Notes under the pieces: generated by a model
The model's database searches: none
The model's input: only the letters and a program-made list of their open reading frames with translations
Told to the model about the DNA's origin: nothing
Shown here: positions 40,219-43,728 of the stretch, piece after piece
How positions within the stretch are numbered: the first letter of the stretch is position 1
How the letters are laid out: each line of letters starts with the position of its first letter
Program-made: the position numbers and the translations under genes
Source: Escherichia coli
GTDB lineage: Bacteria; Pseudomonadota; Gammaproteobacteria; Enterobacterales; Enterobacteriaceae
DNA length: 64,000 bases
Reading direction: 5' to 3' (one strand)
Assembly (NCBI RefSeq): GCF_013122565.1
Contig: NZ_CP053258.1

Positions 40219-40268
40219 TTATTCATTTGCCGGAGTGGGCGAATCCCCACTCCGGCAACATCACCTCT

Positions 40269-41750
40269 CTATGCTAATCCCAGGCGTTGGAACTGCTCTG
40301 GCGGCGCATCATTGTCTTTCATCAACTGAATCAGCAACGCGATCATCCGGGCCTCGATCGCATCATCATGAATCGGATGCAGCTGCTGCGGATCGTTTTG
40401 CAGATCAAACAGCAAATGACCAAACTGATTCAGCCCCTTATATTTCTCCTGTGCCGGGATGCGTAACACCTGCAACCCTTTGGTGAAACGAAACGGTGGA
40501 GCTAGCGATAAAGCCCGCATCTCATCCACCTGATAGCGGCTGTTCATTTTGCAAGCCATTAATGTGTAATTAGCAATATCATCCTCACGCCCTGGCAGCG
40601 CGGCTCGCATATACACATAACGCCCATCGGTTACGTTGACATGACCACTGAAGACACCAAACATCGCCGCACTGCGTACCGGTTCATCGTGGCTGACCGT
40701 TTTCGCCAGCGGTTGCCCCTGCACATCGGGCGGCACCGGCTGCTGAAAAAAGTCATACAACGTAGGCGCCCAGTCGATCATCTGCACCAGCGCCTGACGC
40801 CGTTCGCCTTTTACACCGCTGCGCGGATCCCAGATAAACAGCGGGTTATTCGCCACCTCGTTGTAATAAGGCATCTGGTTTTTCGCCCACCAGCCATGCT
40901 CACCGAGCAAAAAACCGTGGTCGGTGCCGACAATCAGCATGGTGTCTCGCCACAGATCGTGCGCATCCATCAGGTCGAGAATGCGCCCCAGGTTGCGATC
41001 GCACATCGACACCAGCGAGCGATAGCGGCAGCGAATATGCTCCACGGCCTCGTCGCTTTCCTGCACCCGACCACGCGGCCAGTCATAATGCGGCCCGTTC
41101 CAGTCATCCTCATACAACGAAAGGTACTCTTGCGTTGTGTGAAACGGCTCGTGCGGATCAAACGTTTCGATCTGCAATAACCAGTTATCTTGCGCGTGGT
41201 TTTTGTGGATAAAAGCACAACCCGCATCAAAGACTTTGGTTTGTGGAAAATCCGCTTCCTGCTGAATATATTCCCGGTTGGCCCAGTCATGACGCCACAG
41301 GCCAGAAACACCGCCGCCGGTCTGCTTTTGCGGCACCCGTAGCACCTCAGGAATAGGCGGTTGCGCAACGCTTGCCTGCCAGTGATCGCCCTCCTGACCG
41401 CGCACAATTTCCCATGAACTATAGCGATTATGGTAATTTCCGCCGCCATCTTCCCAATAATGCAAATGATCGCTTATCAGGTGGGTATAGATCCCCGCCT
41501 TTTTAAGCAGCTCCGGCATGGAGTCGTCAAACGGTTCTAACGGCCCCCACTCCCGGTGCAGGAAGTTACATCGCCCGGTATGCAGCTCCCGCCGGGCGGG
41601 CATACAGGGCATACTTCCGACGTAACTGTTTTCAAAGGTGGCGGCATGTGCCGCCAGGCGCTGGAAATTCGCTGCTTTTGTCAATAAATCGCCATACGGG
41701 GGTAAATATCTTTTGTTCAGACTATCGAACAGGATAATAATGGCTTTCAT
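40269..41750 (-). CDS. Sulfatase (alkaline-phosphatase superfamily, Cys-type), 493 aa, no signal peptide
   Basis: Formylglycine signature C-M-P-A-R-R-E-L-H-T-G-R at residues 49-60 (nt ~41571-41606); N-terminus IIILFDSLNKR typical of sulfatases. Confidence 0.85.
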   Translation of the reverse strand: MKAIIILFDSLNKRYLPPYGDLLTKAANFQRLAAHAATFENSYVGSMPCMPARRELHTGRCNFLHREWGPLEPFDDSMPELLKKAGIYTHLISDHLHYWEDGGGNYHNRYSSWEIVRGQEGDHWQASVAQPPIPEVLRVPQKQTGGGVSGLWRHDWANREYIQQEADFPQTKVFDAGCAFIHKNHAQDNWLLQIETFDPHEPFHTTQEYLSLYEDDWNGPHYDWPRGRVQESDEAVEHIRCRYRSLVSMCDRNLGRILDLMDAHDLWRDTMLIVGTDHGFLLGEHGWWAKNQMPYYNEVANNPLFIWDPRSGVKGERRQALVQMIDWAPTLYDFFQQPVPPDVQGQPLAKTVSHDEPVRSAAMFGVFSGHVNVTDGRYVYMRAALPGREDDIANYTLMACKMNSRYQVDEMRALSLAPPFRFTKGLQVLRIPAQEKYKGLNQFGHLLFDLQNDPQQLHPIHDDAIEARMIALLIQLMKDNDAPPEQFQRLGLA

Positions 41751-41762
41751 TGCTCATCCCTT

Positions 41763-42083
41763 TTAATTTTTTATCAGATGAGGGAAATGCTGCTGGACGA
41801 CTTCATAAATCTGCGCGCCAATCGTTTCACCATCCATAATATTTTCAATCGGGATCAGATATTGCCCGTGTTTCGGGTCCAGACTGACCACATCGAGTAA
41901 TTTTTTGGAAATTGCAAAAATATCCGCCCAATCGGTAAATCCCCCCACCTCGCCTGCGGCAGTATGTTCCATTTCAACTTTGAACTCATATTTCGTCAGT
42001 GCTTTTTTAACGACCGTTTGTAACATCACGCTACTACCGACACCATAACCACAGACAAACAGAATATTAATTGTATCTTTCAT
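41763..42083 (-). CDS. PTS EIIB component, ascorbate (UlaB/SgaB)-like (106 aa)
   Basis: MKDTINILFVCGYGVGSSVMLQTVVKKAL with the phosphorylatable Cys in the FVCGYG context. Confidence 0.8.
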   Translation of the reverse strand: MKDTINILFVCGYGVGSSVMLQTVVKKALTKYEFKVEMEHTAAGEVGGFTDWADIFAISKKLLDVVSLDPKHGQYLIPIENIMDGETIGAQIYEVVQQHFPHLIKN

Positions 42084-42104
42084 TTTTAACCCCTTAATAG
42101 TGAA

Positions 42105-43430
42105 TTATCCCGCGTAAGGACCAAGATGGAATGTTGCAGCGATAAATTTCAGAACTTCACAAATAGCCGGCCATACGGTTGCCCAGTCAAATATTCCTGT
42201 CCAGCCAACGCCATTTTCAGCAAGCCCGGTTAACGGAATTGCCCACACCGTACCGAAGGTCTGAATAATACCCAGCAAGAACGTACAGATAATTACGGAG
42301 CGGTATCCACCCATGCGGTTTGCTAATACGCCAATCGGGCCGCCTGAGAAAAATAACGGTACAAAGCCTGGCAATACCATAATGGGGCTGTGGATCAGCA
42401 ATAAGATACCCATCGAGAAAATGGTGCCAAAAGTACAGAAGACAAAACCTAACGTTGCGGCATTGGGTGAAAAAGGCAACAGCGCGGCGACATCGACGGC
42501 GGGAATAGCGTTAGGTATAAAGCGATCCTGCCAGCCTTTAAACGAACCGTTAATTTCACCGACCATCATGCGCACGCCCTGCAGCAGAATGACCATGTAC
42601 ATGGAGAACTGTAAGCCCAGGTTGATGATATAGATGTACCAGGGCTTGCCTTTCGCCATTAACTGGACATTATCGATACCCGTTGAGAGCAGGAAGCCAC
42701 CAACAAACAGCGTCATCACAATGGCGATAGCCGTTACGTTGTGGTTAAAAATCGCCAGCCAGCCGGGGAGTTTCAGGTTTTCAGCATCGTGTTTTTCCGG
42801 GTCGCCAAATTTATGCGCGAATTTGGAGAAAAACCACAATCCCAACATCTGGTTATGGGCAATGGTAAAACCGGCATCTTTAGTCACTTTGGCAATGGGT
42901 TTAACAATGAGCGTGGTGGAGAAAGCCCAGAATATCCCCGTTAATACCCCGGCGATAATAATCGATGTAGTCCAGCTAAATCCTAACCAAAAAACGATTA
43001 ACCATAATACTGCCTGAGAATGTGACACCCCGGTATTACCGGTCAGGAATATTCCTTTGGCACCGGTATAGCGACCAAACAGCACCAGTAAGAGGTTGGT
43101 AAAAAACGCCAGAACAAATACATACCCTACATAACCAAAATTATCCCCCAACGCAATTTGCGTTGCGGCTTTCATGGCGTAGGAATCCATTAAATAACCG
43201 TGAACGCCATAGGCTTTACTTACCGCTTCCGCCACCGGTTTAAAGGTTGCGGAAAACTGAAAACCACCAAATAACACCATCATTAATCCCACCATGGCGC
43301 TGACCATGCCGGTGATTATTTTGATGGGTGATTTCTTATCAAGGGCATAACCAATGCCCACCAGCAAACCAATTAATATTGCCGGTTCGGTTAAAAACGT
43401 TTGAATAACATCTATGAATTTGGCAAACAT
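42105..43430 (-). CDS. PTS EIIC permease, ascorbate (UlaA/SgaT)-like (441 aa from second ATG)
   Basis: ORF 42105..43448; the second ATG (MFAKFIDVIQTFLTEPAILIGLLVG) has a ggaggg SD about 10 nt upstream; polytopic membrane protein. Confidence 0.8.
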   Translation of the reverse strand: MFAKFIDVIQTFLTEPAILIGLLVGIGYALDKKSPIKIITGMVSAMVGLMMVLFGGFQFSATFKPVAEAVSKAYGVHGYLMDSYAMKAATQIALGDNFGYVGYVFVLAFFTNLLLVLFGRYTGAKGIFLTGNTGVSHSQAVLWLIVFWLGFSWTTSIIIAGVLTGIFWAFSTTLIVKPIAKVTKDAGFTIAHNQMLGLWFFSKFAHKFGDPEKHDAENLKLPGWLAIFNHNVTAIAIVMTLFVGGFLLSTGIDNVQLMAKGKPWYIYIINLGLQFSMYMVILLQGVRMMVGEINGSFKGWQDRFIPNAIPAVDVAALLPFSPNAATLGFVFCTFGTIFSMGILLLIHSPIMVLPGFVPLFFSGGPIGVLANRMGGYRSVIICTFLLGIIQTFGTVWAIPLTGLAENGVGWTGIFDWATVWPAICEVLKFIAATFHLGPYAG

Positions 43431-43633
43431 CGTCGGAACGCCCTCCATAAGCGTACATTTCCGTTGTCAATGCATGAACCTTCTGCTGACGTTAATAATG
43501 CTTCAGGAAATTTTTATGTTTCGTTAAGCGATGCCTCTGCATGTATTCGGTAAATGCACTGTAGTAATCAAAACAGTTCAATTAAAGATCTAATTTGATT
43601 ATTTGTGATTTGATTTGCAAAAATAGAGCAATA

Positions 43634-43678
43634 TATAACCGTGATCGATCGGTTATTATTAATCGATCGATCACGGTT
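43634..43678. promoter_or_regulatory. Perfect 17-bp inverted repeat separated by 11 bp (candidate operator or terminator)
   Basis: ataaccgtgatcgatcg-gttattattaa-cgatcgatcacggttat; contains four GATC sites. Confidence 0.5.
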
Positions 43679-43728
43679 ATTATTTGGAATGGATGTATGC
43701 CGAAGTGATATTGATTTGAGTGATGTAT

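Follow-up and report, generated by a model that had tools for sequence, protein, structure and literature searches.

In a 64,000-nucleotide stretch of Escherichia coli DNA (assembly GCF_013122565.1, contig NZ_CP053258.1; this whole stretch is referred to here as the window) the interval between the core genes artJ and rlmC holds three minus-strand genes which encode the Enzyme IIC (EIIC) and Enzyme IIB (EIIB) components of a phosphotransferase system (PTS) followed by a sulfatase. The cassette joins a PTS of the SgaT family to a sulfatase of S1 type, both of known kinds, and it is intact and conserved. The features of the locus are as follows.

39487-40218, plus strand: artJ, flanking core gene, convergent with the operon (open reading frame list and RefSeq annotation of homologous loci)
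40227-40258, terminator-like on both strands: GC-rich hairpin at the point where artJ and the sulfatase gene converge (folding)
40269-41750, minus strand: sulfatase of the Cys (formylglycine) type, 493 aa, final gene of the operon (PF00884, 1.4e-27)
41763-42083, minus strand: PTS EIIB of the ascorbate/galactitol type, 106 aa (best NCBIfam matches, Cys11 motif)
42105-43448, minus strand: PTS EIIC of the SgaT/UlaA family, 447 aa as annotated (NF009550 at 964 bits, alignment to UlaA structures)
43551-43622, minus strand: predicted promoter/operator block, shared by enterobacteria of six genera, which is collinear with the ulaA promoter of K-12
43635-43680, minus strand: long perfect hairpin immediately downstream of rlmC (inverted repeat and folding)
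43729-44856, minus strand: rlmC, flanking core gene, its last codon unlike that of K-12 at the edge of the divergent segment

The initial annotation of this DNA had described three minus-strand genes filling the artJ-rlmC gap and missing from this position in K-12, and comparison with the open reading frame list and with K-12 showed both its coordinates and this absence to be accurate. In K-12 the interval is a 198-bp spacer containing repetitive extragenic palindromic (REP) units, and the segment that diverges from K-12 runs from immediately behind the stop codon of artJ into the final codons of rlmC. The same annotation had named the products as a UlaA/SgaT-type EIIC, a matching EIIB and a sulfatase, which NCBIfam, Pfam and structure alignments bear out, the sulfatase carrying a Cys-type motif. 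The genes of the cassette lie 12 and 21 nt apart, consistent with a single operon in the order EIIC-EIIB-sulfatase. As had also been recognised, neither a regulator nor an EIIA is encoded between artJ and rlmC according to the open reading frame list, and since no PF00359-type (EIIA) reading frame lies in this interval the Enzyme II is incomplete at the locus. The RefSeq names given to the three genes are generic in complete E. coli genomes, including those of O157:H7 and O145:H28.

Membership of the EIIC in the SgaT/UlaA family is indicated by full-length homology, with the pivot glycines G58 and G286 and residue R288 in place, all three being invariant across the 36 members of its clade. The protein matched NF009550 well above threshold (cut-off 583), it is 37% identical to E. 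coli UlaA and its residues 6-437 align to the UlaA structures 5ZOV (E 1e-94) and 4RP8 (5e-93); for the Salmonella orthologues PF03611 is on record for the EIIC and PF02302 for the EIIB. Using the list of residues through which UlaA contacts vitamin C (PMC6048161) we found that the sulfatase-linked clade, represented by the same 36 sequences, retains G58, Y87, H194, G286, R288, D314 and F362, and that the clade-wide changes at contact positions (S59G, H135N, I136T/A/S, Q139S/A and Q195N) are all to smaller side chains. The window EIIC differs from ecUlaA at S59G, H135N, I136T, Q139S, Q195N, I358V and M410I, and other SgaT paralogues encoded at the same loci retain H135 and I136. Such a pocket would suit an ascorbate-like ligand bearing an extra substituent. 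That the protein is itself a UlaA orthologue was considered and rejected, its contact set being incomplete and its score against the UlaA equivalog NF006919 (320.7) falling under the cut-off of 380. The GGAGG Shine-Dalgarno sequence of the gene is conserved and lies within the first codons after the annotated ATG at 43448 (MEGVPT...), and this upstream ATG reads ACG in Leclercia and Enterobacter, so translation probably starts at Met7 (43430), and the protein would then have 441 aa, as in Enterobacter.

The EIIB has the PTS_IIB domain and the N-terminal phospho-Cys loop (CGxGxGSS) that mark the UlaB/GatB type. Its N-terminal VCGYGVGSS, which includes Cys11, is the counterpart of VCGNGQGSS in UlaB, and its best NCBIfam matches were to ascorbate IIB/IIBC models, at 44 against an equivalog cut-off of 138.

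The third protein has the sulfatase fold and the C/S-x-P-x-R motif of the S1 formylglycine-dependent sulfatases. Besides its match to the Pfam sulfatase domain it matched the arylsulfatase and choline-sulfatase models of NCBIfam, with every score under the cut-off. In alignments C49-M-P-A-R53, H95, H200, D277-H278 and K290 coincide with catalytic residues of known sulfatases, and 20 homologues from Proteobacteria and Firmicutes show no variation at C49-M-P51-A-R53, D9, H95, H200, D277, H278 or K290. Of the canonical S1 set (Asp-Asp, Lys-x-His, His, Asp-His/Asn and Lys) the window protein thus has all but the second Asp, which is S10, and the Lys of Lys-x-His, which is D94. A loss of catalytic residues, which the initial annotation had named as a reason to abandon its reading, was not what the alignment revealed: one catalytic position does deviate, Asp94 standing for the canonical Lys, but the motif, the aligned metal ligands and the other aligned residues are present and invariant. 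Because the metal-binding D9 already lies in the first strand no signal peptide is possible, and we predict a cytoplasmic enzyme. Its Cys is predicted to be converted to formylglycine, and its predicted activity is the hydrolysis of a sulfate ester.

With a mean column identity of 60%, the sulfatase belongs to a distinct and strongly conserved subfamily. Among solved structures its best profile matches were 4UPI and 4UPL, with the phosphonate monoester hydrolase (PMH) entries 2VQR, 2W8S and 4UPK close behind and, after 4UPI and 4UPL, further matches to Bacteroides N-acetylglucosamine (GlcNAc)-6-sulfatases and to choline sulfatases; the best full-length structure profile reached E = 6e-28, and good alignment is confined to parts of the protein. 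Family members that are less closely related, at 46-57% identity (Paenibacillus, SAR86, Brachyspira, Streptomyces and Microbacterium; loci L055-L077), have no PTS and share the DHLHYWE and NFLHREWG motifs; the substrate of these members presumably differs.

The pairing of this sulfatase with a PTS was followed in other bacteria by a scan of one genome per species, which gave 63 loci whose 10-kb neighbourhoods were compared by tblastn with reference proteins. Sulfatases at least 60% identical to the window protein lie in nearly all cases directly behind a member of this EIIC clade and an EIIB. In the protein database sulfatase homologues with 62-68% identity occur in many Firmicutes, where the unit is compact and reads DeoR-EIIC-EIIB-sulfatase-EIIA or has the EIIA fused, and two protein clusters are fusions of sulfatase and EIIA (PF00884 with PF00359, the PTS_EIIA_2 domain). 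The EIIA-less form with three genes is kept in Salmonella, Yokenella, Enterobacter, Leclercia and Silvania. When the EIIAs linked to the cassette were scored, the fused domain included, the UlaC model was the best in five of six. Uptake by the PTS followed by desulfation inside the cell, as proposed by the initial annotation, is the most economical reading of this arrangement and is strengthened by the sulfatase-EIIA fusions and by the nearly universal linkage of EIIC, EIIB and sulfatase in other phyla, so that a functional coupling of the PTS to the sulfatase has good support.

Genes for arylsulfate sulfotransferases (PF05935) adjoin the cassette in Enterobacter hormaechei, Silvania and Leclercia, and in a Lachnospiraceae metagenome-assembled genome (MAG) such a gene occurs with a second SgaT-type EIIC/EIIB and a SorC-type regulator (loci L013, 3466-4881; L021 and L022; L015/L035, 13515-15383). 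These neighbours suggest sulfate-ester chemistry nearby.

Among catabolic genes, only those of the ula pathway for L-ascorbate are found repeatedly beside the cassette. At 8 of the 33 non-enterobacterial loci a UlaG homologue is encoded no more than 10 kb away, in varying architectures. The cassette of Bacillus sp. SD088 is divergent from DeoR-EIIA-UlaG-UlaD-UlaE-UlaF-PtsI and its permease is the only one there; in Neobacillus niacini a single strand reads EIIA-EIIC-EIIB-sulfatase-UlaG-UlaD-UlaE-UlaF; and in a Clostridium MAG the order is UlaG-EIIA-EIIC-EIIB-sulfatase and then UlaF-UlaE. An UlaG gene is also found within this distance in Olsenella (Actinobacteria), an Oscillospiraceae MAG, Bacillus FJAT-50079 and two more Clostridium species. 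In Clostridium chh4-2 an UlaG equivalog (540 bits), a ribulose-5-phosphate 4-epimerase, a transketolase and a GntR regulator are clustered with the sulfatase without this EIIC, and the ula regulon of Sebaldella contains a sulfatase which was recorded without comment in a 2011 survey (PMC3219644).

A further connection to ascorbate metabolism lies upstream of the EIIC gene, in a block of 72 nt (43551-43622, minus strand) that Escherichia shares with Salmonella, Silvania, Leclercia, Yokenella and Enterobacter. A position weight matrix built from the six genus sequences over these 72 nt was scanned over the window and the K-12 ula locus, about 150,000 positions in all. Apart from the block itself the top match, at 43 bits, was the ulaA promoter of K-12 (background mean -67, standard deviation 13.5), the ulaG-proximal site came second (9-14 bits) and all sites outside the ula intergenic region scored 1.4 bits or less. 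The ranking was the same for a matrix made without the window and Salmonella sequences, with 45 bits for the ulaA promoter (43-46 overall) against 6.6 or less outside the ula intergenic region. The block is identical to the K-12 ulaA promoter, in the same register, at 37 of 47 conserved positions. When promoters were aligned singly to the ula intergenic region, those of Silvania and Yokenella outscored all 500 shuffles. A local alignment of the window's own promoter to this region was not significant, its score being reached by 90 of 500 shuffles, and the relation to ulaA is apparent only via the other genera and the multi-genus matrix. The matrix also gave a modest match (-5.4 bits, against the background mean of -67) just upstream of K-12 ulaR (L080, 2429-2500), and genomic SELEX (systematic evolution of ligands by exponential enrichment) reported a second UlaR-binding site upstream of ulaR (PMC5934670).

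In the matrix scan the putative operator and promoter sequences resemble those of ulaA and ulaG. Within the block we place a putative CRP-like site, TGCAAATCAAATCACA, at 43604-43619, its centre about 61 bp upstream of the likely transcription start, together with a putative -35 element TTTAAT (43581-43586) and a putative -10 element TACAGT (43558-43563) in the same register as in ulaA. UlaR reportedly occupies four operators between ulaG and ulaA, from which L-ascorbate-6-phosphate releases it (PMC3219644, PMC5934670). The genomic SELEX study that classed UlaR as a single-target regulator used K-12 (PMC5934670), a strain without the cassette. Going by the likeness of its control region, the operon promoter may be bound by both UlaR and CRP. 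Taken with the UlaC-like EIIAs of other cassettes, this likeness points to the use of UlaC and UlaR in trans, and the missing EIIA and regulator would most simply be accounted for if UlaC and UlaR/CRP control were borrowed from the core ula regulon.

Our favoured explanation, to which we give a probability of about one half, is that the operon is an entry route by which a sulfated L-ascorbate such as the 2-O-sulfate passes into the Ula pathway. The EIIC would bind the sulfated ascorbate in a vitamin-C pocket that has apparently been widened by smaller residues, and together with the EIIB it would import and phosphorylate this ligand in a manner analogous to the action of UlaA on O6. The cytoplasmic formylglycine-type sulfatase would then strip the sulfate, an order of steps that we infer from the make-up of the operon, and the product, L-ascorbate-6-phosphate, would feed UlaG-UlaD-UlaE-UlaF and relieve repression by UlaR. 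The Firmicutes would hold the system as a self-contained unit (DeoR, EIIC, EIIB, sulfatase and EIIA) and the Enterobacteriaceae a version pared to EIIC-EIIB-sulfatase, which would take its EIIA, most likely UlaC, and its UlaR/CRP-type control from the core ula regulon. In mammals ascorbate 2-sulfate is among the metabolites that are measured routinely (e.g. PMC11322087), and this ester would be the leading candidate for the substrate.

Several points weigh against this explanation. A search of the literature found no functional study of the operon (locus tags STM0883-0886 and Z1087-1089) and no substrate for it, and STM0884 appears in gene lists only, once labelled 'ulaA'. In the sulfatase S10 stands at the position of the second metal Asp, which is Ser or Thr in the family, and D94, which sits in an invariant SDHLHYWEDGG motif, stands at that of the canonical sulfate-binding Lys; given the profile matches to the arylsulfatase and PMH clade the leaving group could be other than sulfate. 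No gene for a sulfatase-maturing enzyme was found adjacent to the cassette in the loci examined. Most of the Firmicute loci (25 of 33) have no ula gene within 10 kb, and the DeoR regulators of Firmicute cassettes match generic GlpR/AgaR models best and the UlaR model weakly. Some of the distant PTS-free members of the family adjoin other sulfatases, which points to sulfated carbohydrates as substrates for the family at large. The likeness of the promoter could also stem from a duplicated ulaA region and not from present-day control by UlaR.

The initial annotation had suggested the scavenging of host glycans, and in this account the PTS would import a sulfated hexose, hexuronate or sugar acid from mucin or glycosaminoglycan, with the desulfated phospho-product entering central metabolism directly. 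A single-sequence structure search counted the mucin-desulfating and GlcNAc-6-sulfatases of Bacteroides (7P24, 5G2V) among its near matches, of which only residues 242-357 align well, and most Firmicute cassettes stand alone without added catabolic genes, as would be expected if their product were itself a central metabolite; the company that distant members of the family keep with other sulfatases agrees with it as well. Against this, no glycoside hydrolase, lyase, hexosamine or hexose catabolic gene or uronate catabolic gene recurred with the cassette in the neighbourhoods examined, the sole recurring catabolic genes being those of ula, with the sulfatase even inside ula operons. The permease is moreover a member of the ascorbate (SgaT) family in which half of the residues that contact vitamin C are retained, and the enterobacterial promoter matches that of ulaA. 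We consider a glycan-derived substrate unlikely.

It is also conceivable that the enzyme is a formylglycine hydrolase of the arylsulfatase/PMH clade which acts on a non-sulfate ester, for example a 2-phosphate, phosphodiester or phosphonate of ascorbate or of a related lactone, so that the operon would be linked to ascorbate without any desulfation. The best profile matches (4UPI and 4UPL, with the PMH entries close behind), the replacement of Lys by the invariant Asp94 and the Ser or Thr at the second metal Asp all fit such an activity. On the other side, the C-x-P-x-R motif, Arg53, His200 and Lys290 are kept as in true sulfatases, arylsulfate sulfotransferases are neighbours in Enterobacter, Leclercia, Silvania and the Lachnospiraceae MAG, and the 2-sulfate of ascorbate is well established as a natural metabolite. 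The 2-phosphate is known mainly as a synthetic derivative. A non-sulfate ester seems to us improbable, and we retain a sulfated ascorbate as the preferred substrate.

Among 5426 complete E. coli genomes the cassette is present in 566, including those of O157:H7 and O145:H28, and absent from 4860. All carriers have one chromosomal copy and no plasmid copies were found in these complete genomes; other E. coli alleles are 92-96% identical to the window cassette, and at least 80% of it is kept in each of the 566 carriers. Its position between rlmC and artJ is identical in Salmonella enterica subspecies enterica, arizonae and diarizonae and is shared by Yokenella regensburgei, E. whittamii, Escherichia sp. 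E1V33 and Escherichia sp. MOD1-EC7003. In Enterobacter, Leclercia and Silvania the cassette lies elsewhere in the genome, adjoining the arylsulfate sulfotransferase gene. Between E. coli and Salmonella the synonymous divergence (dS) of the cassette is 1.7-2.0, compared with 1.55 for rlmC and 1.88 for artJ, and the ratio of non-synonymous to synonymous divergence (dN/dS), at 0.017 in the EIIC gene and 0.045 in the sulfatase gene, resembles that of the flanking core genes. The cassette is under purifying selection.

The initial annotation had spoken of an inserted accessory operon. A horizontally inserted island was rejected on the grounds that the same locus is occupied in related genera, that dS is like that of the flanks, that a search of the reading frames and repeats found no integrase, insertion sequence (IS) element or flanking direct repeat at the window cassette, and that plasmid copies are lacking. 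Given the shared position in Salmonella, Yokenella and other Escherichia species, the flank-like dS and the lack of mobility signatures, it is more likely that the cassette is ancestral and has been lost from about 90% of E. coli than that it was gained.

Traces of decay are seen in individual lineages. Three sulfatase fragments, P0031 (378 aa), P0116 (323 aa, 148 member sequences) and P0037 (355 aa), are 96-97% identical to the window protein; P0116 is named EHEC06064_23790, and shortened sulfatases are common in some E. coli lineages, which suggests recurrent inactivation. Strain ECNB21-M121 has an IS1 within the cassette (H70). That the E. coli cassette is altogether a decaying, non-functional remnant, left without EIIA or regulator and being lost, would agree with its absence from most complete genomes, with the common 378- and 323-aa fragments (the latter named from a strain of enterohaemorrhagic E. 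coli, EHEC) and with the one IS1 insertion, yet it is improbable given that the three reading frames are intact in the window and in O157:H7, that dN/dS against Salmonella is 0.02-0.05, that the promoter block is conserved in six genera, that every one of the carriers keeps at least 80% of the cassette and that the EIIA-less form is retained in five other genera.

The rlmC-artJ interval varies in other ways. In cassette-free genomes the artJ-rlmC spacer contains REP-type palindromic units (in K-12, L002, 2320-2517) and occurs in at least three lengths among strains, the matches spanning 2018, 2164 or 2188 bases. In strain N73 (NZ_CP189493.1) the match to the query is limited to the first 181 bases and the gene for the arginine-binding protein adjoins a phage baseplate gene, so that the artJ region there is apparently broken up by a prophage or a rearrangement. 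In Yokenella additional genes, for an MsrP/MsrQ-like pair and for a two-component system, separate rlmC from the cassette (L024, 3976-8160), and the interval has therefore accepted other genes in that genus.

Two hairpins frame the operon. The one at 40227-40258 folds at -26.3 kcal/mol on the plus strand and -27.9 kcal/mol on the minus strand (z = -7.2 and -5.6) and was not reported by a consensus terminator scan. The one at 43635-43680 (-30.4 kcal/mol, z -7.4) is a near-perfect palindrome with 21-nt arms, ATAACCGTGATCGATCG...CGATCGATCACGGTTAT, which is kept in Escherichia and Salmonella with a compensatory change from G/C to A/T in Salmonella, and which is seen solely where rlmC adjoins the cassette, being absent at cassettes elsewhere. 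The match of the terminator scan at this position lies on the plus strand; reading it as a terminator of rlmC on the minus strand follows from the palindromic stem and the T-rich tract after the stem on that strand. It is probably an rlmC terminator that insulates the operon promoter, the alternative being a palindrome bound by a protein. An operator of the operon itself was rejected in view of its occurrence only beside rlmC and of the strong hairpin with its T-rich tract.

Of characterised systems the closest is the ula system of E. coli (UlaABC, UlaG, UlaDEF and UlaR; SgaT family, TC 4.A.7), with which the cassette shares full-length EIIC homology, the Cys motif of the EIIB and a collinear promoter, and in other phyla the cassette lies inside ulaG-D-E-F operons with an UlaC-like EIIA. 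Unlike the ula regulon it has a sulfatase, its enterobacterial form is without EIIA or catabolic genes and five contact positions are smaller. To the S1 sulfatases and the arylsulfatase/PMH clade (4UPI, 4UPL, 2VQR; S1_11 5G2V and 7P24) the window enzyme is tied by its PF00884 fold and C-x-P-x-R motif, by Asp and Asp-His as metal ligands and by the His/Lys general acid and binding residues, and it differs from them in having no signal peptide, in its coupling to a PTS, in its fusion to EIIA in some organisms and in the exchanges of Lys for Asp and of Asp for Ser. The operon SPH1922-1929 of Streptococcus pneumoniae (PMC3302838), also uncharacterised, likewise pairs PTS parts with an intracellular sulfatase, but its PTS is of the lactose/cellobiose type and it has its own sulfatase-modifying enzyme, a TauE (sulfite) exporter and no link to ascorbate genes.

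Characterised bacterial sulfatases are mostly periplasmic, surface-bound or secreted, and the present case of a PTS paired with an intracellular sulfatase bears on the cytoplasmic maturation of Cys-type sulfatases in E. coli. We know of no microbial fate for ascorbate sulfate, itself a host metabolite. Tentatively, the operon may represent the first bacterial catabolic route for sulfated vitamin C, one wired into ula in which a PTS would phosphorylate a sulfate ester and a cytoplasmic sulfatase would act on the doubly anionic sulfo-phospho intermediate, with Asp94 adapted to the phosphorylated substrate, and so a new class of PTS-dependent sulfatases in Firmicutes, Actinobacteria and Enterobacteriaceae. 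If the proposal holds, it would assign a role to an operon which belongs to the core genome of Salmonella and occurs in EHEC O157:H7 and O145:H28 but not in K-12, it would say what gut and pathogenic bacteria do with ascorbate sulfate, and it would add a second input branch to the ula regulon.

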